Positions 707 through 37,857 of a DNA stretch of 64,000 bases are shown piece after piece. Made by a program: the position numbers and the translations under genes. The notes beneath the pieces are model-generated. The model saw only the letters and a program-made list of their open reading frames with translations. It did not search any database and was not told the DNA's origin. Source of the DNA: an uncultured Candidatus Saccharibacteria bacterium (lineage in GTDB: Bacteria; Patescibacteriota; Doudnabacteria; UBA920). Location: positions 14,392-78,391 of the forward strand of contig CAYTCJ010000001.1 of the NCBI GenBank assembly GCA_964436545.1, written 5' to 3'. How positions within the stretch are numbered: the first letter of the stretch is position 1; every line of letters begins with the position of its first letter.

Positions 707-1704
707 TGAGTATATCTATTGGTTGTCATGTTTCGGCTTCGGGGGGAGTTTGGAATGCGCCAAAGAATGCGTTTGATTTAGGTTGCGAAACTTTTCAAAT
801 CTTCACTCGTCCACCAATGGGTGGGCCTGCACCAAAGCTTGATGACGTGGTGGTTGAAAAATTTAAAATGGAAATGGTAAAATATTTTCCGAGTTTTAAC
901 TCCCCTCCTAAAGTAGGAGGGGATAAAGGGGTGGTATTTGTTGTCCATTGTCCGTATTTTGTAAATTTCGGTTCTGCTAAAAAAACCACTTATCACGGGT
1001 CAATTTCCGTGGTGTCCGAAGAATTAACACGGGCTAACTTACTTGGCGCAAAGTATGTTATGACCCACTTGGGGAGTTTTAAGGATTTAGGGCAAGCGGT
1101 AGGTATGAAGCAAGCTCAAGCGGGGTTAAAAAGCGTTTTGGAAAAATATGAAGGCAACTCCGACGCTACGGTCGGAGGAGTAAAAACAAAGTTTTTACTC
1201 GAAATATCTGCCGGAGCTGGAGAAGTGATTGGGGATACTTTTGAAGAATTAGCCGAACTTATGGAGCCATTAGTAAAATTTAAGACTTTCGGGGGGATTT
1301 GTTTTGACACCCAGCACGCGTTTTCAAGTGGCTATGATTTGCGCGATGCCTCATCAGTTGCCCAAACCTTTAAGGAGTTTGATAAAGTGATTGGCTTAAA
1401 ATGGCTAAAAATGAGTCATATGAATGATTCTAAAGTGGAATTAGGCGGAAAAAAGGACCGTCACGAACATATTGGGGAGGGAAAGATAGGCGAAAAGGGG
1501 TTTAAAGCAATTTTGGAGTATTTTAGCACCCTCTCTGTCCCGCACAAGCGGGACATCCCTGCCTTGCCGGCAGGCAGGTCTCCCAAGAAGGGAGAGAAAA
1601 ATAATGTGCTTCGCTTTATGCCCTTGATTTTGGAAACCGAACATGATAAAGTCAAAACAGATTTAAAAATTTTAAAACAATTAAGAGACAAAACTTTAAA
1701 ATAG
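706..1704 (+). CDS. nfo: Endonuclease IV (AP endonuclease family 2, xylose-isomerase-like TIM barrel) with two in-frame palindromic insertions
   Basis: N-terminal GCHVSASGG, HxxY/His-metal motifs; length 332 aa vs ~285 expected; insertions at 902-922 and ~1530-1597. Confidence 0.75.
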   Translation: MSISIGCHVSASGGVWNAPKNAFDLGCETFQIFTRPPMGGPAPKLDDVVVEKFKMEMVKYFPSFNSPPKVGGDKGVVFVVHCPYFVNFGSAKKTTYHGSISVVSEELTRANLLGAKYVMTHLGSFKDLGQAVGMKQAQAGLKSVLEKYEGNSDATVGGVKTKFLLEISAGAGEVIGDTFEELAELMEPLVKFKTFGGICFDTQHAFSSGYDLRDASSVAQTFKEFDKVIGLKWLKMSHMNDSKVELGGKKDRHEHIGEGKIGEKGFKAILEYFSTLSVPHKRDIPALPAGRSPKKGEKNNVLRFMPLILETEHDKVKTDLKILKQLRDKTLK

Positions 1705-2573: not shown

Positions 2574-4056
2574 ATTTTATTTAACCACCACTTTGCCATA
2601 TGTAAATTCCAGCCCTCATTTGGGGTTTGCTTTGGAAATGGTATTGGCCGACAGTATTGTTAGGTACCAAAAACTTTTAGGGGGGGAAGTATTTTTTAAT
2701 ACCGGTACCGACGAACACGGAGTGAAAATATTTAGAAAAGCTCAGGAAGAGGGTAAGGCGGTACAAAAGTATGTAGATGAGTTTGCGGAACAGTTTAAGC
2801 AATTAATGCCCGCTTTGGGGATTCTGCCCGAGATTCATTTTATTCGCACCACCGAAAAATATCATATTAACGCCTGCCAAGCTTTTTGGGAGCGTTGTTT
2901 TCAAAACGGGGATATTTATAAAAAGATTTATCATATTAAATACTGTGTGGGCTGTGAATTGGAAAAAACCGAAAGCGAATTAAGCTCGGACGGGAAATGT
3001 TTGGTGCATCCGAATTTGGTAATTGAAGTTTTAGAAGAAGAAAATTATTTTTTTCGGTTTAGTAAGTACCAACAATCTTTGTTAGAGTTTTACAAGCAAT
3101 CCCCCGATTTTGTGGTACCGGAATTTAGGTTTAATGAAATAAAAGAATTTGTAAAAAACGGTTTGCAAGATTTTTCCATTTCTCGGCTGAAAGAAAAAAT
3201 GCCTTGGGGAGTGCCGGTGCCCGGAGACGAAACTCAAGTAATGTATGTGTGGTTTGATGCTTTAATTAACTATGTTTCTACGCTAGGGTGGGGAGTAGAT
3301 AGCAATCAGCAAATCAGCAAATCAGCAAATCAGTTTACGGATTTTTGGGGTACAAAAGAAAAACCAAATGCCATACAAATTGCCGGTAAAGATAATTTAC
3401 GCCAACAATCGGCCATGTGGCAGGCTATGTTAATGTCTGCCGGGCTTCCCACCTCCAAACAAATTATCATTCACGGGTTTATTACCAGCGGAGGACAAAA
3501 AATGTCCAAGAGTTTAGGTAATGTGGCAGATCCTTATTCCATCTTGAGCCAGCTAAAAACCAAAGGGCTTACCAATGAGCAAGCTATAGATGCTTTACGA
3601 TATTATTTACTTAGAGAAATTCCCACTTTTGAAGATGGGGATTATACTTGGGAAAGGTTTGTAGAAAGTTATAATGCCAATTTGGCCAATGGGGTTGGAA
3701 ATTTAACGTCACGGATTTTGAAAATGGCAGTGAATGCCGGAATTATGAAGTATGAATTAGGAATTAGGAATGAGAAAACAAATCAGCATTTAGAAAAATA
3801 CGAACTCCAAAAAGCCATGGACCTGATTTGGCAAAAAATTAAAGCTTGTGACGAGTATATTCAAAAAACCGAACCCTTTAAACAAATTAAAGTGAATGAA
3901 GCGGAAGCTAAAAAAAATATTCAATTTTTACTTTCCGAATTGCATCAAATCGCCTTTGATTTACAAGCTTTTTTGCCTCATACGGCAGAGCAAATACTTA
4001 AAGCATTAACCGGAAATACGCAGAATGAAATTCCGCGTTTATTTCCAAGGATATAA
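2563..4056 (+). CDS. metG: Methionyl-tRNA synthetase (class I, minimal form) with short tandem-repeat insertion
   Basis: HLGF (HIGH-type) and KMSKS motifs; tandem caaatcag x3 at 3305-3335 encoding SNQQISKSANQ. Confidence 0.9.
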   Translation: MPNKFYLTTTLPYVNSSPHLGFALEMVLADSIVRYQKLLGGEVFFNTGTDEHGVKIFRKAQEEGKAVQKYVDEFAEQFKQLMPALGILPEIHFIRTTEKYHINACQAFWERCFQNGDIYKKIYHIKYCVGCELEKTESELSSDGKCLVHPNLVIEVLEEENYFFRFSKYQQSLLEFYKQSPDFVVPEFRFNEIKEFVKNGLQDFSISRLKEKMPWGVPVPGDETQVMYVWFDALINYVSTLGWGVDSNQQISKSANQFTDFWGTKEKPNAIQIAGKDNLRQQSAMWQAMLMSAGLPTSKQIIIHGFITSGGQKMSKSLGNVADPYSILSQLKTKGLTNEQAIDALRYYLLREIPTFEDGDYTWERFVESYNANLANGVGNLTSRILKMAVNAGIMKYELGIRNEKTNQHLEKYELQKAMDLIWQKIKACDEYIQKTEPFKQIKVNEAEAKKNIQFLLSELHQIAFDLQAFLPHTAEQILKALTGNTQNEIPRLFPRI

Positions 4057-4617: not shown

Positions 4618-5289
4618 TTGAATAATCAAAAAGATGTTATGCCTTCAGAAGTTTATGATACGGATAGAGAAAATTTGGCAAAAGCTGATGCTAATTTAGT
4701 AAGAGTAGGATTAAATGTTAGTTTAATAAAAGAGTTTAAAAGAGTGTTGGACTTAGGAGCAGGAGATTGTGTAATTGAAAGAACAGTTACACAAGCTGGG
4801 GGTACGAATGTTACTTCTGTTGGATTAAAACCATCAAATACCAATCGATCAAGAGCTGTAAATTTTACTTCCATGGATATTACTCGGGGGGTGGGAAGAT
4901 TACCTTTAGCAAGTTTTGATTTAATTGTGAGTATTAACGGACCAATGGCTTTATCTAAAACCCGTGAACAAGCAGTAGCAATGTTGGAAAATTCAATTAG
5001 ATTATTGTCACCTCATGGTGAATTAAGGATTGCACCAATTCGTTTTGGTTTTATTAAACAGGAATTATTTTCTCGAGATGAAAGATATGCCAACATCCAA
5101 GGAAAATTATCACATTTAAGAACTGCAAAAGAAATTGATTATTTACAACAAGTTAATCAACAAGCAGATTCTTTGACTCAGGAAAGATTACGAAATTTAG
5201 GTTATGTGTTTGAGGTTGGTCATGGGCTAAATGGGATAGAAAACAGTTATTTGGTTTTTAAGAAAAGTCAAAATCCTTATGTTAATTGA
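4618..5289 (+). CDS. putative class I SAM-dependent methyltransferase-like protein
   Basis: VLDLGAGDC motif-I-like sequence; otherwise unassigned. Confidence 0.4.
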   Translation: MNNQKDVMPSEVYDTDRENLAKADANLVRVGLNVSLIKEFKRVLDLGAGDCVIERTVTQAGGTNVTSVGLKPSNTNRSRAVNFTSMDITRGVGRLPLASFDLIVSINGPMALSKTREQAVAMLENSIRLLSPHGELRIAPIRFGFIKQELFSRDERYANIQGKLSHLRTAKEIDYLQQVNQQADSLTQERLRNLGYVFEVGHGLNGIENSYLVFKKSQNPYVN

Positions 5290-6253
5290 CACTCACGCCC
5301 ATATTAATTTTAAAGCCTTTGAGGCTGATGCTACGGAAGTGGTTCAGCGCGCTTTTAATAATGGAGTAAGTCTAATCTTGGTGGGGACGCAAATAGATAC
5401 TTCTAAAGAAGCAGTTGAGCTTGCTGAGAAATTTAACTCCCCCGCCTTCGGTACCCCCTCTTTGGCCAAAGAGGGGGGAGGGGGAGTTTATGCTGTCGTG
5501 GGTCTTCATCCGGTTCATACTTACAGCCAGCATTTAGACGAAGAAGAAACCAGCTTTCAAACCCGCGAAGAAATTTTTGATTATGAAGCTTATTATAAAC
5601 TTGCCAGTCATCCGCTGGTGGTGGGTATAGGGGAGTGCGGATTGGACTATTACAGAATTAAGAATGATGAATTAGGAATTATGAATGTGGAAGAAATTAA
5701 GAAAAAGCAAAAACTGACTTTTATTCAGCAAATTAAATTAGCAAAAGAATTAGACAAGGCATTAGTGATTCATTGTCGGCCCAGTGTCGGCACGGCAGAT
5801 GCTTATGAAGATATCCTTCAAATTCTGGACCAAGAATTTGAAAAATTCCAAATTCCAAATCCCAAATTCCAAATGCGGTTTGAAATTCATTCTTTTACCG
5901 GTTCACCGGAGATTGCTATGGAGTTTGTAAAACGTGGCGCTTATGTAGGTTTAAATGGTATAATTACCTTTGGAGATCGAAAGACAAAAAATCTGACGAC
6001 ATCCTCCATAGCCTTGGCGAAGGAGGGTGATAAGACCGGTAATATGAAAAAAGTGGTGGAAACTGTGCCTTTGGAGCGAATAGTTTTGGAAACCGATTCG
6101 CCTTACCTAACTCCAGTCCCGCATCGAGGAAAACGCAATGAGCCTTTATTTGTTAAACACGTAGCAGAAAAAGTGGCGGAAATTAAAGGTGTGTCTTTAG
6201 AAGAAGTGGCAAAAACCACAACTCAAAACGCTAAATTGTTATTTAATATTTAA
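5279..6253 (+). CDS. tatD: TatD family metal-dependent hydrolase (DNase) with in-frame palindromic and microsatellite insertions
   Basis: MLIDTHAHINF start, TatD His/Asp/Glu pattern; insertions at 5440-5490, 5850-5885, 6005-6030. Confidence 0.85.
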   Translation: MLIDTHAHINFKAFEADATEVVQRAFNNGVSLILVGTQIDTSKEAVELAEKFNSPAFGTPSLAKEGGGGVYAVVGLHPVHTYSQHLDEEETSFQTREEIFDYEAYYKLASHPLVVGIGECGLDYYRIKNDELGIMNVEEIKKKQKLTFIQQIKLAKELDKALVIHCRPSVGTADAYEDILQILDQEFEKFQIPNPKFQMRFEIHSFTGSPEIAMEFVKRGAYVGLNGIITFGDRKTKNLTTSSIALAKEGDKTGNMKKVVETVPLERIVLETDSPYLTPVPHRGKRNEPLFVKHVAEKVAEIKGVSLEEVAKTTTQNAKLLFNI

Positions 6254-6257: not shown

Positions 6258-9200
6258 ATGACTAAGTATAATCCAAAAAAAACCGAAGCGAAATGGCAAA
6301 AATTTTGGCAGACCCGAAAAATTTTTGTTGGCAAAGATTTTTCCAAAAAACCTAAAAAATTTGTCTTAGTGGAATTTCCATATCCTTCCGGTGCGGGTTT
6401 GCATATGGGCCATTTGCGTCCCTATGTGGCTGCCGATGTCTATGCTCGGTTTTGCAGAATGAAAGGTTTTGAAACTTTATTCCCCATGGGCTGGGATGCT
6501 TTTGGGCTTCCGGCAGAAAATTATGCTCTAAAAATGGGCGTGCATCCGGCCATTACCACCAAAAAGAACATTGCCAATGCTAAAAAACAAATGTTGTCTT
6601 GGGGACTTTCGTTCGATTGGAGCCGGGAAATTAATACCACAGATCCGAATTACTATAAATGGACACAGTGGTTATTTTTACAGTTCTATAAAAAGGGTTT
6701 GGCTTTTGAAGCGACCGGAGTCATTAATTGGTGTCCTTCTTGTAAAACTGGTTTGGCTAACGAAGAAGTGATAGACAACAGTTGTGAGCGTTGTGGCACT
6801 AAAGTGGAAAAGAAAGAATTAAGGCAATGGTATTTAAAAATTACTCAATACGCGGAAAAGTTATTGCAAGGTTTGGAAACTTTAAAAGCTTGGCCCGAAC
6901 CGGTAAAACTTCAACAACAGAATTGGATTGGTAAAAAAACCGGAATAAATATTACTTACGATATTGTTTCGGATAAGGCAGATTCAAATTATGTTTTACT
7001 TCATGGGTTTAACGGAAGCAGTGAGGGGATATTTTTTCCGTGGTTAAAACAAGAATTAAACAAACGAACAGTAAAAGTAGTTTGTCCTAATTTACCTAAC
7101 GCCAATCATCCCACAGAAGATGAACAAGTAGCATATGTGTTAAAAACTTGCGAATTTAATTCTCGCACTATTTTATTTGGCCATAGTTTAGGCGCGGTGG
7201 TGGCTTTAAAGGTGTTAGAAAAATTAAACACTAAAATTGCCGGAGTGGTTTTAGCCGGGGGTTTTACCAATCCAAATTTTAAAGATAATTCAAGACCGTT
7301 TGCAAAAACTTTTAATTGGCAGTTTGATTTTAATAAAATTAAATCCAATGTGGATTTTGTAAAGATTCTTAGCGATCCCACAGATTATGCCATTCCCACA
7401 GAGCAAGGAAAGAATCTGCAAATGAACTTGGCAGGCGCTCTTTTGGAAATCCCCGGTGAAAAACCGCATTACACTTCGGAAGTGGAACCTAATATTTTAA
7501 ACGCACTTCTACCTAACATTACTTGCTTTACCACTCGGCCAGACACCAACTTTGGAGCGACCTTTGTGGTAATCGGACCGGAACATCCGTATTTAAAACA
7601 TAGGCAAATTTTAAATATTGGCACCAAAGCTTGGCAAGCCATTGAAGCTTATAAGCAACAAGCTTTAAGCCAAGGCGATGAAGTTAGAACTGCGGAAAAC
7701 CGTAAAAAGACCGGAGTGTTTACGGGTTTGTATTGTTTGAACCCGCTCACTAATTTTAAAATGCCGTTATATGTGGCAGATTATGTGCTGGGGAATGTGG
7801 GTACCGGGGCGGTGGTGGGTGTGCCTGGGCATGACAAGCGGGATTTTGAATTTGCCCAAGTTTTTAATTTGGAAATTAAACGCGTGGTACAAAAGCATGA
7901 ACAAGACAATTTACCCATAACCACCTTAGAGCAAGTTCAGGAAGAAACAGGGGTTATGGTAAATTCCGAATTTTTAAACGGGTTAGATATCCATACCGCC
8001 ACAGAAAAAATTATGGATTATATGGAAAGTCAAGGAATGGGTAAACGAGTGGTAAATTATAAATTACGGGATTGGGTATTTAGTCGCCAAAGGTATTGGG
8101 GTGAACCTATTCCTTTGGTGCACTGTGAAGATTGCGGGGTAGTGCCGGTACCGGAAAAAGATTTGCCGGTTAAACTGCCCAAAGTAAAAAAATATGAACC
8201 TACCGGCACCGGGGAATCACCCTTGGCAGATATTTTAAATTGGGTTAAAACCAAATGCCCACAGTGTAAAAAGTTGGCTTATCGGGAAACTAACACTATG
8301 CCTCAGTGGGCAGGGAGTAGTTGGTATTGGTTAAGATTTACCGATGCCAAAAATTCCAAAGCTTTTGCATCTATCAAAAACCAAAAATACTGGACTCCGG
8401 TAGATGTATATTTTGGCGGAATGGAGCATACGACTTTGCATTTGCTTTACAGCCGTTTTTGGAATCAATTTTTGTTTGATAATGGCTTGGTAGTTTCCAG
8501 CGAACCCTATAGTTTGCGCAAACCTCACGGCATTGTTTTGGGTCCGGATGGCGAAAAAATGTCCAAGTCTCGGGGTAATGTGGTAGATCCGCAAGCGATA
8601 ATTAAACTTTATGGCGCAGATACCTTAAGAATGTATGAATTATTTTTAGGTCCGCATGAGGCCATGGTGGCGTTTAATGATAAAGGCGCCGTAGGGGTAA
8701 AACGGTTTTTAGATAGAATGTGGGATTGGGTATTAAATAATATCAAATATCAAAAATCAAATATCAAAGATTCGGAAAAAGTGGAGCAGGAATTGCATAA
8801 ATTAATAAAGAAAATCACTGAAGATATTGAAAATTTCCGCTTTAATACTTGTATCTCCGCTTTTATGGAGTTTTATAACCAAATTAAAGAAGAGAAGGTC
8901 TCTTGGGAAGTAATAAAAACTTTTTTAATTTTATTGTATCCTTTTGCCCCGCACGTAGCCGAAGAGTTGAATCAGCTTGCCAGCTCGTCAGCTAATCAGC
9001 GAATCCTCCGTCGCCATGGCTATGGAGGACAAGTCAGAAAGTCAGCGAATCAAAAAATTATTAAGTCACTCCAGTTGGCCAAGTGGCCGGAGTTTGACAG
9101 TACGAAAATTGTTCAGAAAGAAGCGGAAATTGTAATTCAAATTAATGGAAAAGTGAAAGGTAAAATTCAAGTGGGGTTTGATTCAGCCGAAGAGGCGGTT

Positions 9201-9305
9201 AAAGTGGAAGTTTTAAAATTGGAGGTTATTAAACAAGCTCTAATTAACGATAGCATTAAGCGAGTGGTATTTGTTAAGAACCGATTAATTAATTTGGTAA
9301 TCTAA
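6258..9305 (+). CDS. leuS: Leucyl-tRNA synthetase carrying an inserted alpha/beta-hydrolase domain (~6975-7500) at the CP1 editing-domain junction
   Basis: HMGH and KMSKS motifs, TTRPDT editing motif; 1015 aa vs ~800-860 typical; insertion contains LLHGFNGSS and GHSLGA nucleophile elbow. Confidence 0.9.
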   Translation: MTKYNPKKTEAKWQKFWQTRKIFVGKDFSKKPKKFVLVEFPYPSGAGLHMGHLRPYVAADVYARFCRMKGFETLFPMGWDAFGLPAENYALKMGVHPAITTKKNIANAKKQMLSWGLSFDWSREINTTDPNYYKWTQWLFLQFYKKGLAFEATGVINWCPSCKTGLANEEVIDNSCERCGTKVEKKELRQWYLKITQYAEKLLQGLETLKAWPEPVKLQQQNWIGKKTGINITYDIVSDKADSNYVLLHGFNGSSEGIFFPWLKQELNKRTVKVVCPNLPNANHPTEDEQVAYVLKTCEFNSRTILFGHSLGAVVALKVLEKLNTKIAGVVLAGGFTNPNFKDNSRPFAKTFNWQFDFNKIKSNVDFVKILSDPTDYAIPTEQGKNLQMNLAGALLEIPGEKPHYTSEVEPNILNALLPNITCFTTRPDTNFGATFVVIGPEHPYLKHRQILNIGTKAWQAIEAYKQQALSQGDEVRTAENRKKTGVFTGLYCLNPLTNFKMPLYVADYVLGNVGTGAVVGVPGHDKRDFEFAQVFNLEIKRVVQKHEQDNLPITTLEQVQEETGVMVNSEFLNGLDIHTATEKIMDYMESQGMGKRVVNYKLRDWVFSRQRYWGEPIPLVHCEDCGVVPVPEKDLPVKLPKVKKYEPTGTGESPLADILNWVKTKCPQCKKLAYRETNTMPQWAGSSWYWLRFTDAKNSKAFASIKNQKYWTPVDVYFGGMEHTTLHLLYSRFWNQFLFDNGLVVSSEPYSLRKPHGIVLGPDGEKMSKSRGNVVDPQAIIKLYGADTLRMYELFLGPHEAMVAFNDKGAVGVKRFLDRMWDWVLNNIKYQKSNIKDSEKVEQELHKLIKKITEDIENFRFNTCISAFMEFYNQIKEEKVSWEVIKTFLILLYPFAPHVAEELNQLASSSANQRILRRHGYGGQVRKSANQKIIKSLQLAKWPEFDSTKIVQKEAEIVIQINGKVKGKIQVGFDSAEEAVKVEVLKLEVIKQALINDSIKRVVFVKNRLINLVI

Positions 9306-9351: not shown

Positions 9352-10053
9352 TTGGGATGCCCTTCGTTGATTTGGATTGCGTTTATGATTATTTTTAAGT
9401 ATTCTAAACAACAACACAACCAAATAATCCAAGCCAGTGTGAAAGCTTTAAAACAAGGTAAAATTATAGTTTACCCGACTGATACTTGTTATGGTTTGGC
9501 AGTGGATGTGAGCCGGCTTCAGGCCATAAAACAACTTTACAAATTAAAAGGTAGAAATTTTAACAAACCCAGTTCCGTGGTGGTGCCGAGTTTGGCTTAT
9601 GCAAAAAAAATTGTGCAGTGGGGTAGTGAGGCACAGAAATTGGCAAAAAAGTTTTGGCCGGGAGCTATAACTTTGGTTTGCTCCCTCACCCTACCCTTTC
9701 CCTCTAGGGGAGAGGGGAGAGGGTTTAGAATTCTAACCGCAAAGACAAATTTTTTAGGTTTAAGACTGCCAAAAAATAGACTCGCTCTCGATTTAGCCAA
9801 AGGCTTAAAAAAGCCCATTACCGCAACTTCTGCCAATTTGGCGGGAAAAAGTGAGTGTTATTCAGTAGATGAAATTGTTCAACAATTTCAGCATCAAAAA
9901 ATTAAACCCGATATTATTATTGACGCTGGCAAATTACCTTTCCAAAAGCCATCTACTTTGGTAAAGCTGGAACATTCCGGTCAAGTATCCATAATTAGAC
10001 AAGGGCCCATTACTCAGTCACAAATTAAAAAAATTATAAACGCTAAACGCTAA
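9352..10053 (+). CDS. tsaC: L-threonylcarbamoyladenylate synthase (YrdC/Sua5 family) with in-frame palindromic insertion
   Basis: YPTDTCYGLAVD motif; imperfect cccctc-type palindrome at ~9681-9726 encoding PFPSRGEGRG. Confidence 0.8.
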   Translation: MGCPSLIWIAFMIIFKYSKQQHNQIIQASVKALKQGKIIVYPTDTCYGLAVDVSRLQAIKQLYKLKGRNFNKPSSVVVPSLAYAKKIVQWGSEAQKLAKKFWPGAITLVCSLTLPFPSRGEGRGFRILTAKTNFLGLRLPKNRLALDLAKGLKKPITATSANLAGKSECYSVDEIVQQFQHQKIKPDIIIDAGKLPFQKPSTLVKLEHSGQVSIIRQGPITQSQIKKIINAKR

Positions 10054-10072: not shown

Positions 10073-11221
10073 ATGCTTTTAAATTTTCATTTATCCAATT
10101 ACTTTACCAAGCAAGTGAGAGAAGAGATTGGCGAATTGTATGCTCATTCCGCCATAGCTAATTTGGCCGGCTCTATGATGTTATTATTTGAGCCGATTTT
10201 TCTTTATGCGGTTTTAGATTTTTCTGTGGAAGAGGTTTTGTTGTTTACTGCACTGGTTTACGCAGTCTATATCCTCTGCATTCCTTTGGGAGGTAAGTCC
10301 GCCAGTCTGTTTGGTTATAAACATACCATTGCTTTAAGTGTGCCTTTCCAAATTATTTATTGGATGTTATTAATTGTCTCTCAGCAGGGGGTGGGTTTTG
10401 CTTATTTGGCGGCGGTTTTTTATGGATTGTCTAAAACTTTTTATTGGCCGGGTTTTCATTCTTTAATGGCCCGCTATTCGGACAAGGGTCAAGTGGGTAG
10501 GGAATTTGGCGCTGTGTATTCTTTAATTAGTTTAACTTTTATTGCCGGACCGTTTTTAGCCGGTTTTTTGTCTAAGCATTTTGGTTTTACCATTACTTTT
10601 GTGATTACTGCCATTATTTACGCCTTTAGTTTAGTGCCACTGTTTAGAGTTAAAGAAAGTTTTACGCCCAAAGAATATTTTTATAAAGATACTTGGGAAT
10701 TATTCCGCAGTTATCCCAAAAAGTTTTTAGGTTATTTGGGTTTTGGGGAAGAGTTGTTGGTTTTGAATATTTGGCCAATTTTTATTTATTTAATCGTGAA
10801 AGATTTTGAAAAGGCCGGGGGTTTAGCTACTATTGCCAGTTTAATTGCCGCCATTTTGGCTTTAATTATTGGGAAAGTTACGGACCAGTATTCTAAACGG
10901 GTATTAATTCGTTTAGGTGCTTTTTTTACAGCTTTGGTGTGGTTAATGCGGACCATTGCTACTAATTTTTGGAATACTTTTTTTGTTGACGCCTTGTCTA
11001 GAACCAGTAAAGAGATGGCCTTTATTCCCATTTCCACAGTTACCTACATTCGCGCGCAAAATATTCATGTGGTGCCCTATGTGGTTTTTTTTGAACAAAG
11101 TTTAGCCATTGGTAAATTAATAGCTTGTATTTTAGGGATTATTTTGTTTAGCTTAACCGGCAGTTTTGTGGTATTATTTGTGCTGGGTGCCGTATTTAGC
11201 TTATTGTATATGTTTGTGTAA
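10073..11221 (+). CDS. MFS-type transporter
   Basis: ~12 hydrophobic segments, MFS-like layout. Confidence 0.65.
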   Translation: MLLNFHLSNYFTKQVREEIGELYAHSAIANLAGSMMLLFEPIFLYAVLDFSVEEVLLFTALVYAVYILCIPLGGKSASLFGYKHTIALSVPFQIIYWMLLIVSQQGVGFAYLAAVFYGLSKTFYWPGFHSLMARYSDKGQVGREFGAVYSLISLTFIAGPFLAGFLSKHFGFTITFVITAIIYAFSLVPLFRVKESFTPKEYFYKDTWELFRSYPKKFLGYLGFGEELLVLNIWPIFIYLIVKDFEKAGGLATIASLIAAILALIIGKVTDQYSKRVLIRLGAFFTALVWLMRTIATNFWNTFFVDALSRTSKEMAFIPISTVTYIRAQNIHVVPYVVFFEQSLAIGKLIACILGIILFSLTGSFVVLFVLGAVFSLLYMFV

Positions 11222-11270
11222 AAACGCGGATTTTGCGCTGATATTAACGCGGATTAGCGCTAATAAGCAT

Positions 11271-11654
11271 ATGAAGTTATTATATGAAAAAGAATCCTAC
11301 GAAATCCGAGGCGCTTGTTTTAAAATTTGGAAGGAATTTGGAAACGCATATAAAGAATCAGTAGTGGATAAAGCGCTTACCTTGGAGCTTTTAACAAGGG
11401 GTTTGCAAGTTAGTGAACAAAAAAGAATTAATATTTACTATAATGATAAAAAAGTTGGTACTTATGTGCCAGATAAAGTGGTAAATGAAATTATTATTAT
11501 TGAGTTAAAGACCAAACCTTTTTTAACTCAAGGCGATATTAAACAGTTATGGCACTACTTGAAAGGTTCGAATTACAAATTAGGTTTTTTAGTTAACTTC
11601 GGAGATAAACTTGAAATTAAACGTATTGTTTACGACACGGCACGCTCTGCGTAA
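11271..11654 (+). CDS. GxxExxY family protein (PD-(D/E)XK-like)
   Basis: YEIRGA...LELLTRGL...YVPDKVVNEIIIIELK...LVNFG pattern matches GxxExxY family; flanked by inverted repeats. Confidence 0.7.
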   Translation: MKLLYEKESYEIRGACFKIWKEFGNAYKESVVDKALTLELLTRGLQVSEQKRINIYYNDKKVGTYVPDKVVNEIIIIELKTKPFLTQGDIKQLWHYLKGSNYKLGFLVNFGDKLEIKRIVYDTARSA

Positions 11655-13732: not shown

Positions 13733-14749
13733 ATGGATACACAAATCAACCCACCTGCTAACCTGCAGTTTAAGGCATTAGACCCAATTGCTCCCGGCGC
13801 GCCTTTTGGTTATGTTGCCAGTCCGTCCTTTGATGCTTCGTTGCCTGTAAATTCGGCTGTAAGTAGTAGCCAGACTTTACCTCTGCATTCGGGAGTAGAT
13901 TCGCCGGAAGCTTTAAAAAGCGACAAGGTTTCCTATGAAGATGCGAGCATTCAAGAAATTGATATCACTAAAATCGTTCCCAATCCGTTCCAGCCCAGAA
14001 AAACTTTTGAGCCCACTGCGCTACAAGAATTAGCCAATTCCATAAAAGAACACGGAGTCATTCAGCCTTTGGTGGTTACAAAAACCTTGAATGGTTATGA
14101 ATTGGTCGTGGGGGAAAGACGCTTTCGGGCTAGCCAACTTGCGGGACTTACTGCAGTGCCGGCTATTATTAAAGAGCAGATGGTAGATCAAACCAAATTG
14201 GAAGTGGCGTTAATAGAAAATATCCAAAGGCAGGAATTAAACCCCATAGAAGAAGCTCAGGCCTATGACCGGTTAATGAAGACTTTTAATTTGACTCAAG
14301 AAGCGGTAGCTAAAAAGGTGGGGAAAAGTCGTCCGGCTGTGGCAAATACCGTGCGGTTACTTAATTTACCGGCAGAAGTGCAAAGAGCGGTAATTGATGG
14401 CAGATTAACCGAAGGTCATGCGCGGGCGCTACTCGGGCTGAATGATCCGGAAAAAATTCTTTTGCTGTATAAAACCGTCATAGAAAAAAAATGGAATGTG
14501 CGGGAAGTGGAAGACAAAGTGCGGGATTTAACTCAGAAAAAACAAGTGGATGCAGTGGCGCCCGATACCAAACTTTTAGCCATGGAAAGCGAATTGCGCA
14601 TAAAACTGGGCACGCAAGTAAAAATTTTGAAACAGGGGAGAGGGGGAAAAATTACCATAGATTTTTATAGCGAAGAAGAATTGAACGAATTAATTCATAA
14701 AATGGCGCAAGCTCAAAATGGTATGGAAGGCGGATATTTGACGGTTTAA
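13733..14749 (+). CDS. parB: ParB/Spo0J family partition protein with ~90-aa N-terminal extension
   Basis: ParB N-domain IQPLVV...GERRFRA, HTH region. Confidence 0.8.
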   Translation: MDTQINPPANLQFKALDPIAPGAPFGYVASPSFDASLPVNSAVSSSQTLPLHSGVDSPEALKSDKVSYEDASIQEIDITKIVPNPFQPRKTFEPTALQELANSIKEHGVIQPLVVTKTLNGYELVVGERRFRASQLAGLTAVPAIIKEQMVDQTKLEVALIENIQRQELNPIEEAQAYDRLMKTFNLTQEAVAKKVGKSRPAVANTVRLLNLPAEVQRAVIDGRLTEGHARALLGLNDPEKILLLYKTVIEKKWNVREVEDKVRDLTQKKQVDAVAPDTKLLAMESELRIKLGTQVKILKQGRGGKITIDFYSEEELNELIHKMAQAQNGMEGGYLTV

Positions 14750-14876
14750 TGCTTGACCCCGTTAAAAGTCAGTCCCGACGAGTCGGGACTGCTGGCGAGA
14801 TAGCTCGCCAGACTTCTAACAGGGTTGACCCCGTTAAATCCGCCAAAGGCGGAACCGCACAGCGGTTATTTAACTG

Positions 14877-14905
14877 GGTTGACAACTTTTTTAAAAGGTT
14901 TATAC
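14877..14905 (+). promoter_or_regulatory. sigma70-like promoter (TTGACA-16nt-TATACT) firing into the non-coding region
   Basis: hexamers read in sequence. Confidence 0.3.
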
Positions 14906-15699
14906 TAATTATAGATACAGCAATGAATACCTTAAATTTAACTAATTTTCCTTCCGTCCGCCCAAGTCTCGTGAAGACTTTTATTTGGCATGCGCGGGGT
15001 TGGAATATGAGGTAGAATACAGAAAATCTCATAAACCTAAGCCAAAACCCCGCAAATAGGGGTTTTATTAATTTGTCATTCGGAACTTGTTTCAGAATCT
15101 AAAGCACATTAAAAATCAAAGACATCTTCCCATAATCTGCTTTCAACTGATTTTTTTCACAATTTTGAGCGAAAAACCTGAAGAGGAATGAAAGTGTAGC
15201 CAACGGCTACAGTGAATTCCGATGAAGTTTTTGCAGCCAAAATTTGGAAAAAAGGCTTGAAACTGAGATTATGGGAAGATGTCTAATAGCTATTGCTCGC
15301 AGAAATTCATCTTTTCTCTGTCATCCCGACCCGACTTCGCTAAAGCTTCGTCGGGCAAGCCGATTTTAGTAAATTTAGATGAGTGGTTTGCCCACCGTAG
15401 CCTTGGCGAAGGTGGGAGGGATCCCCCCTCTTTTCCAAAGAGGGGGTAGGGGGAGTTAAATGAAAAGGATTAATTTCCGCGAGCAATCGCAACAGTATGA
15501 GGTAGTCAAGCAATCTTACCGGATTGTTTGAGTGATAGCGTAAAGTTTGTTGAAGATATATTCCGCAATTATAGGAAAAAAAACTTCAACAGATTGCTAT
15601 CATAGGAAGGCACCGAACAACCTTCTATTCTACCTCATCCAATTTGGCGGTCCCTGCAAAGGGCAAAGAGAAAGTTGGCCACTTGTGGGCTAATAATTA

Positions 15700-16240
15700 T
15701 CTTTGGAGTTGAGCTTTTAGCTCCTCCCGCCTAAAAAGATGGCGGTATTACCGCCCTGACTCGTGTCTGTCGCACGAGCAGTAAGTCCTGCCGTAAAGGT
15801 GGGATGAAAAGAAGCGCGACGACAGCGCGCAAATAAGGAGGTGCTAAAAATGCACACCGAACTTCTCCCGGCGGCGCCCCCGCTCCGACCGGCACCGTCC
15901 ACCCTGCTCGTCCCGCCAATTCCCTCACCCGTCCCGATTCGTTTGCTCCGACGGGAGGAGAAGGAAGAGGCTCACGCCAGAGAGTGGTATGAGCTGAGGT
16001 CGTAGTGTGGGGCTTTGACAAGGTAAACCTCGCCATTGGCGGGGTTAAAAAGGCCAAATTATAGAGCCTTCCTTGTCACATTGTAGTTTTTTTTGCGAGA
16101 CGGTCAACAGCTGTTCCGTTTCGCACCCACGCCCGCAAGGGCCGTACTTGTAGAGAATCGTTTCATATTTTCATCTTCGATTCCTACAGTGCGGTCCTTG
16201 CGGGCACTGTTTCTTAATTTTTTTTCCGCCCCTTAGTAGG
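15700..16240 (+). ncRNA. GC-rich non-coding island; candidate large structured RNA of unknown class (strand uncertain)
   Basis: high GC in an AT-rich genome, no credible ORF, multiple GNRA-capped hairpins (gcccgcaagggc, ccttgcgggc), upstream promoter. Confidence 0.25.
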
Positions 16241-16428
16241 TGGTTTTTTTATTTATAAAAAATGATTATTGTCTTCGATCGTTTATGTCCTGATAGCTTT
16301 AAACTAAAAAAACGACTTAAGTCGTTGGTTAAGCATTTCGTTGGTCGGACTGCCGGGAATTCCTGCCTGCCGGCAGGCAGGGAACCCGGTCTATATGCAC
16401 CTTCACCCCGTTAAATATAATTTGTTTT

Positions 16429-16502
16429 TGGTCGGGATGCTGGGAATCGAACCCAGACTACATCCACCCCATGGACGCGTACTACCACTATACTACATCC
16501 CG
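16429..16502 (-). tRNA. tRNA-Pro (anticodon GGG), 74 nt, encoded CCA
   Basis: acceptor CGGGATG/CATCCCG, D-loop AGTGGTA, anticodon loop AUGGGGU, T-loop TTCGATT. Confidence 0.75.
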
Positions 16503-16659
16503 AATTAAAACAAATATTCAACGGGGCAAGTGAATGCGCCTGTCCGCCTACTGGCGGATACTACCGGTATATTTATCCCGTAGTCAGTTTACTGTACTAT
16601 GGGACTACAGTCAGTTATTGCAATGAATTATATAGAATTATCAGTTTTTGTCAAAGTTA

Positions 16660-17379
16660 TTACGTTTTTCCCAAAAAGACTTTTTCTAAAATATCGCTTT
16701 GAATAATGTGTTGGCCGGAATCGGTTTTTATTACTTGACCTTGAGCCAATACATAAGCTCTATCTACCATTGCCAGTAAAGATTTTAAATTGTGTTCTAC
16801 CACCACCACGGCTGTTTGGTGCCTGTGGTTGATTTCTTGAATTTTGGCAAATACTTCTTTTACCATTTTGGGCGATAAGCCCAAACTGGGTTCGTCTAAC
16901 AATAAAATTTTTGGCTCTGTCATTAGCCCTCGGGCAATGGCCAGCATTTGCTGTTGTCCGCCGGACAACTCACCGCTTTTGGCATGCCGTTTGGCTTTTA
17001 GCATGGGAAAAATTTCCAAAAGTTCCGCTATTCGGCGGTTAATTTCCGCAGGGGGGTTAACGGTGTAGCCACCAATCGCCAAGTTTTCCTCTACGGTTAA
17101 ATATTTAAACACTCTTCGGCCCTGCGGAACAAACGAAATACCTAAACTTACCATTTCATGCGTAAGGGGCTTAATGGATTTTTCGTGCCACAAAATTTGT
17201 CCGCTATCTATAGGTACTAAACCAAACATGGCTTTAAGGATGGTAGATTTACCCGCGCCATTCGGGCCCATAAGCGCCACAATTTCGCCTTCGTCAATGG
17301 CAATATTCACATTATTAAGTGCTTTGACTCCGCCGTAGTGAACGGATACATTTTTTAGTTGTAATAATATCTCTTGCAT
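16660..17379 (-). CDS. livF: Branched-chain amino acid ABC transporter ATP-binding protein (LivF-like)
   Basis: Walker A GPNGAGKST, LSGGQQQ signature. Confidence 0.8.
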   Translation of the reverse strand: MQEILLQLKNVSVHYGGVKALNNVNIAIDEGEIVALMGPNGAGKSTILKAMFGLVPIDSGQILWHEKSIKPLTHEMVSLGISFVPQGRRVFKYLTVEENLAIGGYTVNPPAEINRRIAELLEIFPMLKAKRHAKSGELSGGQQQMLAIARGLMTEPKILLLDEPSLGLSPKMVKEVFAKIQEINHRHQTAVVVVEHNLKSLLAMVDRAYVLAQGQVIKTDSGQHIIQSDILEKVFLGKT

Positions 17380-23523: not shown

Positions 23524-24111
23524 TCAATGGGACGACAGTTTTGTAAAAGTTAAGCACCTAATCCCATTTAGCCAACTCAAGGTGGTTTGGTGTTGGAAAG
23601 TAAAGTGGGCGACAGTGCCGAGGTTAATAATTTCTCGGGGTTGGTAGTATTGTTTAAAAAAATATTTTTCCGGGCACTTGTCTTGGTTTAAAAACCATTG
23701 CGACAGTTTGGTTAGAGGCATTAAGTCCACAATTAGCAGTTGGCCCAAGGGTTTTAAGACTCGGTAAGCTTCGGTTAAAATTAATTCCGGATTGGGGTAG
23801 TGGTGGCCGGAAAAGACGCAATCAAAAGTGTGCTCGGCAAAAGGTAAGTGTTCGGCATTGGCTACTGTAAACTGAGCCCAAGGATTTTGGTGTTTGGCTC
23901 GGTTAATGGCAGTGGGGGAAAGGTCTATGCCATAGCCTGTTAGGCCGGGGCAAAATTTCTTTAAGATTCTTAATTCATTGCCATTTCCGCAAGAAATATC
24001 TAAAAATTCAGGATTTGGAGGCAAGGTAAAAAGCTTAAAAAATTTTTTTTCTTCGGAAAAGTTTAACCAATTAGAAAGTTTTTTAAGCATATTTGTTAAA
24101 AGTTGTGGCAA
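23524..24111 (-). CDS. class I SAM-dependent methyltransferase
   Basis: motif I LDISCGNG, motif post-I/II pattern. Confidence 0.65.
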   Translation of the reverse strand: MPQLLTNMLKKLSNWLNFSEEKKFFKLFTLPPNPEFLDISCGNGNELRILKKFCPGLTGYGIDLSPTAINRAKHQNPWAQFTVANAEHLPFAEHTFDCVFSGHHYPNPELILTEAYRVLKPLGQLLIVDLMPLTKLSQWFLNQDKCPEKYFFKQYYQPREIINLGTVAHFTFQHQTTLSWLNGIRCLTFTKLSSH

Positions 24112-24153
24112 GGGGAGAGGTGGCTAGTTCCTCCCGCTTGCCTAAAAAAGGTT

Positions 24154-24690
24154 TTAGTGGTCGTGCCCGCCCCCAAAGGGGAGGGCTCGGGTTGCGCCGT
24201 GGGTGAGAAGCTCGGCCAGAAAAGCGGAGATCCCGTGGCCGAAAGCCACTTTTTTAAGCGGGCCCCAAATCCGCCTTTCAAAAAAACCTTTCTTTTGAAT
24301 GATTGCTACTTTATATGCTCGGCTGTCCGAGCAAATATAATAGCCTATCCTGTCCACCTTTTGTCCTGCCCAAGCCCCAGGCAGGACACAAAACACCGCG
24401 CTTTGGGTCTGCTGGTTCTTCCAGTCAGACCAAGATCCAGCGCCCCACACTACCTTCTGGTCGTGCCAGAGAGGCGGGGGGTAGTTTCTCCGTATTTGGT
24501 CATATGTTCCGAGCAGGGGGCCCGGGTACACGACCACGGCCTGAAACCCCGTGGGAAGGTTTTTTAGGAGGTCTTCCAATCCTCCTTCGTGTTGTGGCAC
24601 GCCACGGCGCGAAAAGCCGTGGTCGTGCCCATCTTGCCCCAGGGCGCACCATGGGGCGAACAAAAGCGCCAAAAACAATAGTAACAGCAT
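24154..24690 (-). CDS. GC-rich gene for a secreted protein with His motifs (HDH near N-terminus, GGGHDH at C-terminus); possibly metal-binding, possibly foreign
   Basis: signal peptide; starts right after the second palindromic box; GC far above local average; region also contains palindromic elements, so the coding call is tentative. Confidence 0.35.
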   Translation of the reverse strand: MLLLLFLALLFAPWCALGQDGHDHGFSRRGVPQHEGGLEDLLKNLPTGFQAVVVYPGPLLGTYDQIRRNYPPPLWHDQKVVWGAGSWSDWKNQQTQSAVFCVLPGAWAGQKVDRIGYYICSDSRAYKVAIIQKKGFFERRIWGPLKKVAFGHGISAFLAELLTHGATRALPFGGGHDH

Positions 24691-24704
24691 CGCTTACATA
24701 TCTT

Positions 24705-24723
24705 AATGCAAATCATTTGCATT
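24705..24723. promoter_or_regulatory. second copy of palindrome AATGCAAATCATTTGCATT in the divergent promoter between the His-motif gene and the Fur-family regulator
   Basis: perfect 19-nt inverted repeat. Confidence 0.5.
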
Positions 24724-24839
24724 TGTCAATATCCAAAAATTACAGATGGCATTAATACTCAGATGACGTTTGTAAACCTATTTTTTAGCCAGCCATCAAA
24801 TTATTTGGCTAATCGCAAGTTTTATTCTATAATTTCCAT

Positions 24840-25265
24840 ATGCAAACAGTGTGCAATATCCACAAGGAAAAAATTTCTAAGTCCCTAAAAGCGGGTAAAT
24901 TAAAAGTAACCCCCATAAGGGTTCGGTTGTTAGATATTTTAGAGCATGCCCACAAGCCCCTAAGGGTTAAGGACATTTGTCAAAAAATAAAATCCGACAT
25001 TGTTACGGTTTATCGGAATTTGGAAAATTTGGTGGCGTTGGGTTTGGTGAAAAGAATTTTTTTAGATCAAAAAGAAGCCTATTTTGAATTAGCCAATCAA
25101 GCTCACCACCACCACGCAATTTGTCAGCTGTGTGGTTTGGTTGTAGATGTAAAAATTGCTCACCATAACCAATTGGAAAAAACCGCTTTAAAAACTTCCG
25201 GGTTTGCCAATATTAGTAGTCATAGTTTGGAATTTTTTGGAATTTGTAAAAAGTGTCAAAAGTAA
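24840..25265 (+). CDS. Fur family transcriptional regulator (Zur/Fur-like)
   Basis: winged-helix N-terminus, HHHH and two CxxC pairs in the C-terminal half. Confidence 0.8.
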   Translation: MQTVCNIHKEKISKSLKAGKLKVTPIRVRLLDILEHAHKPLRVKDICQKIKSDIVTVYRNLENLVALGLVKRIFLDQKEAYFELANQAHHHHAICQLCGLVVDVKIAHHNQLEKTALKTSGFANISSHSLEFFGICKKCQK

Positions 25266-28427: not shown

Positions 28428-29042
28428 ATGGAAACACTAATTACACTGGTTATTTTAATCTTTAGTGCCATTGTGCACGAGGTGGCGCATGGGTTAATGG
28501 CGGAAAAGCTAGGGGATACGACTGCCAGAGACGAAGGTCGGATTACGTTAAACCCTGTGCCTCACATTGACCCTTTTGGGTCTTTACTCTTACCTTTTTT
28601 GCTTTTATCCATCGGTTCACCAATTGTGTTTGGAGCGGCTAAGCCAGTGCCGGTTAATGCGCATAATTTTAAAGATCCCAAAAAGGGCATGGCTTTGGTA
28701 AGTTTAGCCGGACCAATGGCTAACTTTATTTTAGCCATTGTGTGCGTAATTCCCATTAAACTTGGACTGGTAAATAGTATTTCTTACCCCATACTAATCC
28801 AAGCTATTTTGTTAAATATCGTTTTAGGCACGTTTAATTTAATTCCCATTCCGCCGTTAGATGGGAGTAAGATTTTAGCTTTCTTTGCGCCCGATGTCTG
28901 GATGGAAAAAATTTTGGCTTTAGAGAGGTATGGGTTTTTATTGGTGCTGGTGTTCTTAATGCTGGGGATTTTAGATAAAATTTTATTGCCGGTGATTATG
29001 ATATTTTTTAGAATTTTTAATTTACCTTTGTCGTGGTATTAA
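28428..29042 (+). CDS. M50 family (site-2 protease-like) membrane metalloprotease
   Basis: HEVAHG zinc motif, NLIPIPPLDG motif, polytopic. Confidence 0.7.
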   Translation: METLITLVILIFSAIVHEVAHGLMAEKLGDTTARDEGRITLNPVPHIDPFGSLLLPFLLLSIGSPIVFGAAKPVPVNAHNFKDPKKGMALVSLAGPMANFILAIVCVIPIKLGLVNSISYPILIQAILLNIVLGTFNLIPIPPLDGSKILAFFAPDVWMEKILALERYGFLLVLVFLMLGILDKILLPVIMIFFRIFNLPLSWY

Positions 29043-29148
29043 AAAATAGGACGAATAGGACACATAAGACTTATAAGTCCCATAGGTCTTGTTGCTTTTT
29101 TGGATAAAAAAACCGCGCGGACCCTCCGAGTGTCCGCGCGGGCAAGTC

Positions 29149-29334
29149 CTACTTCCTCTTGAAAAATAGAGGAATTAGGATAAACAAAATCCCAGTCCAG
29201 AGCAAAAGAAGCCCTAAACCGGCCAAAAATAGCGCCTCGAGTGGGCCTAATTGTGTCGGAATTCCCAACACCGCGCCGATGAACGGCACGATTAAGAGGA
29301 ACCCAACAAGGATTAAGCCCAGTTGAACTTTCAT
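29149..29334 (-). CDS. small membrane protein (61 aa)
   Basis: two hydrophobic helices; GC-rich hairpin terminator at 29112-29140. Confidence 0.3.
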   Translation of the reverse strand: MKVQLGLILVGFLLIVPFIGAVLGIPTQLGPLEALFLAGLGLLLLWTGILFILIPLFFKRK

Positions 29335-37854: not shown

Positions 37855-37857
37855 AAA

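Follow-up and report, generated by a model that had tools for sequence, protein, structure and literature searches.

GC-rich hairpins within and between genes

The stretch analysed here, 64 kb of contig CAYTCJ010000001.1 (hereafter the window), is 39% GC, has a steadily positive GC skew and carries nearly all of its genes on the plus strand, and the nearest named relatives of its proteins come from Patescibacteria, Doudnabacteria and 'Saccharibacteria' metagenome-assembled genomes. A first-pass annotation of the window had described short GC-rich palindromes that lie in frame within essential genes and occur again between genes, and had attributed them to one proliferating family of selfish elements like the Rickettsia palindromic elements (RPEs). 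The genes concerned, as assigned with Pfam, are the following open reading frames (ORFs); we note that nfo and tatD are not essential in model bacteria, so the word essential does not hold for these two.

706-1704, endonuclease IV (nfo; AP_endonuc_2)
5279-6253, TatD
6258-9305, leucyl-tRNA synthetase (LeuRS; leuS)
9352-10053, TsaC/Sua5
54773-56422, DnaX

All of the palindromes previously listed exist, at coordinates that were exact or off by 1-2 nucleotides (nt); there is indeed a palindrome at 24160-24200, but an imperfect one only. The confirmed hairpins are:

Coding: 901-923, 1536-1555, 1558-1578, 1579-1595, 5454-5477, 6003-6027, 9004-9029, ~9684-9728, 55031-55069
Intergenic: 15392-15458, 16362-16381, 29762-29783, 44224-44244, 45655-45675, 62575-62597, 62661-62683

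Counting perfect hairpins with a stem of at least 7, a loop of at most 14 and a stem GC content of at least 60%, we observed 26 in the window versus 3.8 +/- 2.1 in 30 dinucleotide shuffles (~7-fold), and perfect hairpins with a stem of at least 10 numbered eight versus none in any shuffle. The arrangement CCCCCTCTT-N5-AAGAGGGGG, with at most three mismatches, gave five matches at four sites (two overlap at 5454/5455) versus 0.01 expected. Only this paired arrangement is significant; the lone half-sites GAGGGG, GGCAGG and CGAAGG are unremarkable in number, being common because the plus strand is purine- and G-rich. RNA fold energies lie between -14 and -38 kcal/mol, with z scores of -2.5 to -5.9 against composition-matched shuffles for most hairpins; the hairpin in tsaC is no more stable than its shuffles (z = -1.07). 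Rfam searches, at the gathering threshold for the whole window and by E-value for 14700-16700, 24050-24900 and 29000-29950, yielded two tRNAs and chance hairpin matches only; the clusters of hairpins between genes correspond to no known structured RNA.

We compared the window with loci from relatives (L001-L041), among which L035 and L036 (from JGI) hold close nfo orthologues with 89% and 81% amino acid identity, and with L171, a relative 86% identical to the window across 10.5 kb. In all five genes the palindromes are real insertions that keep the frame and lie in protein loops; orthologues and PDB homologues lack them, and their presence or absence is clean among close relatives. The hairpin sequences of the genes are also found between genes, as had been proposed. 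They do not, however, form one family: we distinguish at least four hairpin families (F1, F2, F3 and F6) and two composites (E1 and E2), which are independently distributed.

F1, CCCCCTCTT-N3-6-AAGAGGGGG with tail AGGGGGAGTT; tatD loop 1, 15424, 62575 and 62661
F1b, CCCTCCCC…GGGGAGGG
F2, the 21-mer CCTGCCTGCCGGCAAGGCAGG
F3, CCxCCxTAGCCTTGGCGAAGGxGGG; tatD loop 2, leuS (variant) and 15392, and in frame in L036
F6, CTTCGCTAAAGCTTCG; 15335 and 60066
E1, a composite of ~60 nt, ACCCTCTCTGTCCC…GGGACATCTCCC…GGGGGAGAAAAATATTGT; nfo loop 3 and dnaX
E2, a 57-nt element holding an F3 hairpin; tatD loop 2

There are four to five copies of F1 in the window and six of F2 (~1 per 11 kb). The loci L001-L041 hold three copies of F2, so its density varies between genomes.

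Insertions in nfo and dnaX are discrete units with empty sites

Homologues of Nfo range from 282 to 401 residues, and this variation in length falls almost wholly at three sites, which are the positions of the window hairpins:

901-923, plus strand, F1-like hairpin in loop 1, tcccctccta-AAG-taggagggga, with a 10-bp stem; peptide SPPKVGGD
1156-1182, plus strand, 27-nt in-frame insertion in loop 2; peptide NSDATVGGV; hairpin ctccgac-GCTACG-gtcggag at 1158-1177
1528-1608, plus strand, composite E1 in loop 3: left end ACCCTCTCTGTCCC, hairpin A at 1536-1555, nested F2, hairpin C at 1579-1595, right end GGGAGAGAAAAATAATGTG
1558-1578, minus strand (canonical orientation), F2; the plus strand reads CCTGCCTTGCCGGCAGGCAGG; peptide PALPAGR

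When Nfo is aligned to PDB entry 3aal, two hairpin segments fall in gaps (loop 1, an 11-residue gap, and loop 2). In an AlphaFold model (mean predicted local distance difference test score, pLDDT, of 79) the three sites are helix-to-strand loops of the TIM barrel, with a pLDDT below 50 at residues 279-300 of loop 3. The face of the barrel that carries these loops points away from the catalytic end.

The nfo genes of L035 and L036 align to the window at ~90% nucleotide identity, which allows filled and empty sites to be compared directly. L035 is without exactly the 21 nt of 1558-1578, with unchanged flanks, a unique placement and no target duplication, and at the same loop L036 carries a hairpin sequence different from that of the window. 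The loop 1 hairpin (fold energy -17.9 kcal/mol, z = -3.6) is identical in both relatives, and the 27-nt block of loop 2 is missing from both. Directly downstream of that block, ~45 nt of the window are unusually diverged from L035 and L036 and match instead the allele type of the distant relatives P0034 and P0005, a tract which suggests that the 27-nt insertion arrived by recombination.

The E1 composite of nfo loop 3 occurs a second time in dnaX:

55000-55081, plus strand, composite E1 between the first Cys and the CGxC of the zinc module (EPSLSLNSSGHLP...GEKNIVQ)
55036-55056, plus strand, F2 variant CCTGTCTGCCGACAAGGCAGG in the loop of the E1 hairpin; peptide LSADKAG

DnaX residues 65-112 (~48 residues) form an unaligned stretch between two segments that align to E. 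coli tau, and many relatives are without it. Translation of the left end of E1 gives TLSVP in nfo and EPSLSL in dnaX; since the frames differ, the homology of the two copies is at the level of DNA and not of protein. The F2 copy in dnaX has three mismatches to F2 and forms a coaxial stack with the E1 stem. All three dnaX relatives that were aligned as DNA, including those with 71% and 48% identity, lack precisely these 21 nt, and the segment is absent from all relatives compared at the protein level. Nesting of F2 within E1, which lengthens the composite from ~60 nt to 81-82 nt, is found in both nfo and dnaX, and in this genome only.

The first-pass annotation had named the same peptides in unrelated lineages as a sign of ancestry rather than insertion. 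The outcome is mixed: the E1 peptides of dnaX and nfo and the E2 peptide of tatD do recur in distant relatives, yet patchily. In DnaX, E1 is present in some relatives of 45-71% amino acid identity and absent from others, and it is missing from relatives as distant as P0136, which bears it. Between the window and P0136, whose DnaX proteins are 48% identical, E1 is 86% identical as DNA versus 68% in the flanking P-loop region (Fisher p = 0.0014). This conservation above that of the host gene, together with the patchy distribution, does not fit simple ancestry. A search of a representative protein library with the 40-residue dnaX E1 peptide, a query too short for the purpose, returned an unrelated leucine-rich-repeat protein only.

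F2 at the tips of ribosomal-protein spacer hairpins

A third comparison of filled and empty F2 sites lies within the window itself, where a spacer hairpin of ~100 nt (S1) occurs four times in the ribosomal-protein operon, three times with F2 at its tip:

37885-37905, plus strand, F2 with one mismatch at the tip of the S1 copy 37854-37953
43579-43655, plus strand, S1 without F2, a paralogous empty site
44224-44244, plus strand, F2 at the tip of the S1 copy 44193-44292
45655-45675, plus strand, F2 at the tip of the S1 copy 45624-45723

When the four copies are aligned, precisely 21 nt are missing at the tip of the second. A complete S1 (44193-44292) has a fold energy of -37.5 kcal/mol (z = -5.9). 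At the three F2 filled/empty pairs that we examined, in nfo, dnaX and S1, the inserted arms are not reverse complements of adjacent pre-existing sequence.

Insertions in tatD, leuS and tsaC

The remaining genes carry longer or less regular insertions:

5435-5485, plus strand, composite F1 element in tatD loop 1: a ccttcgg mini-hairpin, a 24-nt perfect palindrome at 5454-5477 and the tail GGAGGGGGAGTT; peptide NSPAFGTPSLAKEGGGG
5972-6028, plus strand, E2 in tatD loop 2, 57 nt, GDRKTKNLTTSSIALAKEG, with an F3 hairpin at 6003-6027
8985-9056, plus strand, 24-residue insertion near the LeuRS C-terminus, in which AATCAGC-type short repeats flank an F3-like hairpin at 9004-9029
9678-9731, plus strand, GC-rich imperfect hairpin in a tsaC loop, LTLPFPSRGEGRG

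Both tatD sites are gapped against every orthologue tested at 33-57% identity. The loop 1 element corresponds to a 15-residue gap versus PDB 2gzx and is absent from the orthologues in L002-L012; its core and the tail AGGGGGAGTT are common to the intergenic copy at 15424-15458 and to L036 (1132-1166). E2 corresponds to a 19-residue gap versus 2gzx and is absent from all orthologues tested in L001-L012 and L031, and across closer and more distant relatives it is patchy, some having a further 12-residue insert nested within it. E2 is flanked by GGNGAT...GGTGAT, which is no more than suggestive of a target duplication.

The LeuRS insertion, whose hairpin folds at -14 kcal/mol (z = -3.1), is absent from the syntenic orthologues of L002 and L004 and shorter in that of L003. 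Both it and the tatD elements are common to the window and L171. At the tsaC site, L171 has an AT-rich GGAATTAAGAATT array instead of the GC hairpin, with well-conserved flanks, and the comparison of the two also reveals an 18-nt extension of the pyrimidine arm; in more distant orthologues the tsaC loop is shorter. Taken together, the comparisons in nfo, tsaC and the 15-kb spacer described below show that modules turn over at fixed hot spots, and those at the F2 sites show that the insertions are discrete units with empty sites and without target duplication.

Separately from these insertions, residues 245-368 of LeuRS match Pfam Abhydrolase_1/6 and Ser_hydrolase (E ~1e-7) and form an alpha/beta-hydrolase-like domain, also present in L171, which is inserted after the catalytic core and ahead of the editing domain.

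Intergenic copies

GC hairpins are 11 times denser in the non-coding DNA of the window than in its confident ORFs. In-frame insertion, which had been described as tolerated or selected, is tolerated but not preferred within the window. The intergenic copies are:

15329-15458, plus strand, hairpin mosaic of F6 (15329-15352), F3 (15392-15416) and F1 with its tail (15424-15458)
16362-16381, F2 as a 20-nt perfect palindrome, downstream of tRNA-Pro
29762-29783, F1b hairpin ccctcccc-ACCAAG-ggggaggg
60060-60086, plus strand, F6 hairpin with the CTTCGCTAAAGCTTCG core, upstream of tpiA (same core at 15335-15350)
62555-62726, plus strand, two tandem units of ~86 nt upstream of the transketolase gene, each with an F1 hairpin (62575-62597 and 62661-62683)

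At the mosaic, L171 has kept F1 and has other hairpin modules where F6 and F3 stand in the window. The 20-mer at 16362-16381 is identical in L006, whose TatD is 50% identical. The F1b core also occurs in L001, L036 (twice, once in frame in nfo), L039 and L040, and F1 lies in frame in an M24 peptidase of L036. We note that this M24 peptidase gene (L036, 985-1260) is interrupted by a 1-nt frameshift in a run of A, probably owing to misassembly, and that three in-frame GC hairpins (F1b, a CCTCCC type and F1) lie just downstream of the frameshift.

Several other features of the window lie apart from the hairpin families. A 167-nt foldback at 15119-15285 with perfect terminal inverted repeats of ~18 nt (AGACATCTTCCCATAATC) is cleanly absent from the orthologous spacer of L171; it looks like a miniature transposable element with inverted repeats (MITE), separate from the small hairpin families. 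The segments 15731-16057 and 24154-24690 are GC-rich, with ORFs open in several frames and many GC hairpins, and match nothing in Pfam or Rfam. A PD-(D/E)XK_3 nuclease ORF (11166-11654), also found in L171, lies between the genes for a major facilitator superfamily transporter and serine hydroxymethyltransferase and overlaps both called ORFs, and a large VirD4/TraG-like coupling protein (TrwB_AAD_bind, T4SS-DNA_transf; 49532-52084), kept in L039 and L040, is encoded just downstream of the ribosomal-protein/secY region.

F2 in metagenomes

An exact-match scan of JGI contigs for CCTGCCTGNCGGCAAGGCAGG identified at least 120 contigs that carry F2; the counts in this section are among the matches listed. 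These contigs have a median GC content of 0.41, and seven 'viral' contigs also match. In two IMG/VR 'viral' contigs (L165, 632-673, and L167, 2003-2044; GC 0.52-0.55), two F2 copies stand head to head where a 1.7-kb ORF begins and together make up a perfect palindrome of 42 nt. Genes for glycogen phosphorylase and saccharopine dehydrogenase lie on one of the contigs with F2, on account of which F2 may not be limited to Patescibacteria.

The middle base of F2 is C in 122 of 136 copies, and this variant is free of stop codons in all six frames and has a length, 21 nt, that is a multiple of three. When copies clear of contig ends are considered, 56 of 100 lie in long ORFs, versus 64% of random positions in the same loci. 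The host genes include those for TatD (at the variable loop that is also occupied in the window), MnmA, class II ribonucleotide reductase, a class I tRNA synthetase (tRNA-synt_1 and Anticodon_1) and an FtsX-type permease, as well as, judged by motifs, DnaE. Among the 56 ORF copies, 35 are read as xLPAGKAG, 10 as PALPAGR and 11 in the four frames that encode cysteine. That 45 of the 56 use the two cysteine-free frames (p = 7e-13) shows that F2 is translated within ORFs and filtered by selection on the peptide.

Of 126 copies, 119 have a purine directly before F2 (position -1), a preference seen both in ORFs (55/57) and outside them (21/23). The canonical strand of F2 is the sense strand in 57 of 78 ORF copies (57:21) and agrees with the direction of transcription in 12 of 14 copies between co-directional genes (12:2). 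The strand and base-context signature of F2 is thus independent of coding status. As in the window, there is no target duplication, and 22 of the 126 copies interrupt a 7-8-nt tandem array that resumes in phase beyond F2, versus two expected.

Arrays of this kind are also a feature of the window, in which AT-rich 7-8-nt repeats (GTAAGTA, CTAAACG, AATCAGC and GAATTAG) fill the spacers of the ribosomal-protein operon (37.8-47.3 kb) and occur in frame in MetRS, TatD, DnaX and LeuRS (3740-3786, 5655-5715, 54959-54997, 8985-9003 and 9030-9055). They differ among relatives and are a favoured context of F2 in the metagenome loci.

Neither F1, F1b nor F6 occurs in the 769 kb of F2-bearing loci, where the ends of E1 are found only as isolated mismatched matches. 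The families therefore have separate host ranges, and it is these F2-bearing contigs without F1, F1b, F6 and E1 that led us to reject a single proliferating family. A literature search for palindromic insertions in the Candidate Phyla Radiation (CPR), for the F2 sequence and for its peptides found nothing relevant, which is no proof of novelty.

Selfish hairpin elements and alternative explanations

We suspect, with a probability of roughly 0.6, that the hairpins are non-autonomous selfish elements similar to RPEs and to repetitive extragenic palindromes (REPs), belonging to several independent families in a Patescibacteria lineage and filtered by selection where they lie in genes. Their main habitat would be intergenic DNA, where they form mosaic arrays and where F2 sits at the tips of three of the four S1 hairpins. 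A copy landing in an ORF would survive only if its length were a multiple of three, if it had no stop in the frame used, if its peptide were harmless (Pro/Ser/Ala/Leu from the pyrimidine arm followed by Gly/Lys/Glu/Arg from the purine arm) and if it fell in a permissive surface loop. F2, being 21 nt long and free of stops in six frames, satisfies the demands of length and reading frame by construction. Our inference is that F2 might be copied in by a strand-specific reaction directed by single-stranded DNA or a hairpin, as with the HUH tyrosine transposases (the IS200/IS605 transposase TnpA, or the REP-associated tyrosine transposases, RAYTs), the putative enzyme being supplied in trans. Selection after insertion would then leave copies that are a multiple of three in length, stop-free and cysteine-free in permissive loops, and insertion alleles would also spread between lineages by homologous recombination.

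Several observations weigh against selfish elements of this kind. No transposase was found in the ~50 window ORFs that were scanned with Pfam, a set holding few of the ribosomal-protein ORFs, or, in L102 and L130, among the ORFs that inverted F2 copies enclose. Among the matches listed, 11 of 126 F2 copies have GTAG/CTAC no more than 6 nt from an end, and two of 126 have CGTC/GACG there; with no such tag and a target of one purine, the parallel with RAYTs or IS200/IS605 is weak. Distant relatives carry E1 and E2 at the very site where the window has them, which, for an element that inserts at random, calls for ancient presence with many precise losses, site-specific re-insertion or recombination. 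In ~9.5 kb of coding DNA, the window and the 86%-identical L171 differ by only four indels of 6 nt or more, so turnover is not rapid. Targeting of hairpin tips by F2, which holds for dnaX and the S1 spacers of the window, is not significant in the metagenome loci (six copies versus two expected, with a permutation maximum of six). Finally, an exact 21-mer across many lineages with an orientation linked to transcription would also suit a selected function.

That last point leads to the idea that selection keeps the hairpins as cis-acting signals that serve mRNA processing or stabilisation, termination, translational pausing or the binding of a conserved protein, with the ORF copies placed so as to act on the mRNA. 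Retention of the exact 21-mer in at least 120 contigs, an orientation that follows transcription even in non-coding DNA, intercistronic hairpins in the ribosomal-protein operon that recall mRNA-stabilising REPs, the great stability of the structures, the presence in several hairpins of CCUCC/GGAGG (an anti-Shine-Dalgarno and Shine-Dalgarno pair) and the conservation of E1 above its host gene are all consistent with such a role. We nevertheless consider it unlikely, because presence and absence differ among close relatives and paralogous spacers in which nothing else has changed, copies can be degenerate (37885 with one mismatch, dnaX with three), the copy number per genome varies widely, the insertion points are scattered over unrelated proteins, different modules replace one another at the same site, and the frame bias reflects a constraint on the peptide rather than the need for a given position in the mRNA. 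Alternatively, F2-like sequences might be DNA-uptake or recombination-drive signals of naturally competent cells, in which alleles bearing them would be preferred in uptake and recombination and would build up in genes and spacers alike. The conservation of the sequence across lineages, its occurrence in coding DNA nearly as often as at random positions, the travel of at least one insertion allele with a recombination tract and the presence of a type IV pilin-like gene (N_methyl motif) in the window speak for this, as does the fact that the uptake sequences of Neisseria and Haemophilus are enriched in genome-maintenance genes and are often paired into hairpins. Known uptake sequences are, however, not palindromes and arise by point substitution, not by discrete insertion; the density of F2 is ~10 times lower than theirs and very different between related genomes, several unrelated hairpin families coexist, and the purine at -1 and the strand bias would be left unexplained. 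Uptake could thus play a part in the spread of F2 but not in its origin as discrete insertions, and as a full account it seems to us very unlikely.

The insertions could instead originate in place, at hypervariable loops and spacers where, through replication errors, template switching creates inverted repeats or renders them perfect and slippage gives rise to the 7-8-nt arrays, any similarity between sites being convergent. In favour of this, the same loop hot spots hold different but still palindromic hairpins in different relatives (nfo loop 3 of L036 and the window), hairpins adjoin slippage-type arrays, and the pyrimidine arm in tsaC was extended by 18 nt; such processes may well account for the hot spots and the short arrays, and for the way in which stems are kept perfect. 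As an explanation of the elements themselves we find it distinctly unlikely, since convergence cannot give 21 of 21 identical bases in at least 120 unrelated contexts, the same 23-25-nt F1 and F3 units stand at unlinked loci, and the F2 insertions are complete units with unchanged flanks and are unrelated to adjoining sequence, whereas template switching copies nearby sequence. There remain ordinary ancestral protein parts, chance palindromes and assembly artefacts. Although the E1 and E2 peptides are also found in distant relatives, these explanations are excluded by the shuffle controls, by the absence of the segments from most orthologues and all PDB homologues, by the reading of the same DNA in different frames and by the recovery of the identical sequence in independent NCBI, JGI and Logan assemblies.

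If the hairpins are selfish elements, a bolder proposal can be made, which we put forward tentatively as somewhat short of an even chance. F2 (R|CCTGCCTGCCGGCAAGGCAGG) may be an active 21-nt mobile element of many uncultivated lineages, in Patescibacteria and possibly beyond, that is frame-neutral, inserts strand-specifically after a purine without duplication and depends on a putative enzyme directed by a hairpin or single-stranded DNA, and it may, with F1, F3, F6 and E1, be a main source of lineage-specific loop insertions in CPR proteins. F2 would then be among the smallest known mobile elements, and it and its sister families would lengthen the housekeeping proteins of CPR bacteria and increase their variability relative to homologues. 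In-frame palindromic repeats have so far been regarded as an oddity of Rickettsia and a handful of further genomes; their presence in Patescibacteria, with one exact 21-nt unit in at least 120 unrelated environmental contigs, makes the phenomenon broader than had been supposed, and it can reshape proteins in reduced genomes, as the length range of Nfo shows. F2 also offers a clean minimal system for studying how a 21-nt hairpin is copied, with the purine at -1, the lack of duplication and the strand bias as testable signatures. In practice, hairpin elements can break up gene calls and make proteins look more diverged than they are, and they can be used to mark strains in metagenomes.

Comparison with known systems

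DNA uptake sequences (DUS of Neisseriaceae and USS of Pasteurellaceae) occur at about one copy per kb, are about equally dense in related genomes, are non-palindromic and arise by substitution. They resemble F2 as short exact motifs found across related genomes, in genes and spacers, with biased frame use in ORFs; unlike them, F2 inserts as a discrete unit and is both sparser (~1 per 11 kb in the window, three copies in L001-L041) and more variable in density. IS200/IS605 elements and palindrome-associated transposable elements (PATEs) have two different subterminal hairpins and a 4-5-nt target. With these F2 shares the lack of target duplication, insertion 3' of a defined base context, an orientation bias and DNA hairpins, but it is a single hairpin, its target is one purine, and no TnpA is encoded by the scanned ORFs. 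From MITEs, which have terminal inverted repeats around an internal region and a target-site duplication, it differs in being a single hairpin, in the absence of duplication at three filled/empty pairs and in the arrays that remain in phase across it.

The GC clusters and double-hairpin elements of fungal mitochondria and the coding palindromes of nematomorph mitochondria are likewise GC-rich palindromes in an AT-rich reduced genome, tolerated in frame (PMC6649704). These systems are organellar, with different sequences, and the repeats of Nematomorpha reach 284 bp and are not dispersed copies of one unit (PMC6649704). Closer to F2 are REPs and the bacterial interspersed mosaic elements that they form, 20-40-nt imperfect palindromes that are mostly extragenic, intercistronic in operons, arranged as mosaic modules and without target duplication, and that occasionally lie inside genes, replication and repair genes included (PMC3733652). 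F2, at 21 nt and multicopy (six in 64 kb and at least 120 metagenome contigs), is alike in this, but it lacks GTAG at one end, the position counts showing only the purine at -1, and it lies in ORFs about as often as random positions do, far above what 'extragenic' implies. A cognate RAYT, whose gene REPs often flank, was found neither among the window ORFs scanned with Pfam, which include few of the ribosomal-protein ORFs, nor between inverted F2 pairs.

The likeness to RPEs drawn by the first-pass annotation is apt for behaviour, given the in-frame loop insertions, the intergenic copies and the clean presence or absence. RPEs are hairpin repeats of ~100-150 bp in Rickettsia, which lie both between genes and in frame in housekeeping ORFs, where they add surface peptides while function is kept, with several families per genome and no known transposase (Ogata et al. 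2000, cited in PMC3733652). The CGTC tag that Di Nocera et al. report at RPE ends (PMC3733652) is not present here, and membership of the RPE family itself fails on length, the units here being of 20-27 nt and the composites of ~57-90 nt, GC-rich in an AT-rich Patescibacteria genome. The earlier reading is thus supported in part: the elements are like RPEs in behaviour, but are neither members of the RPEs nor one family; they form several hairpin families.

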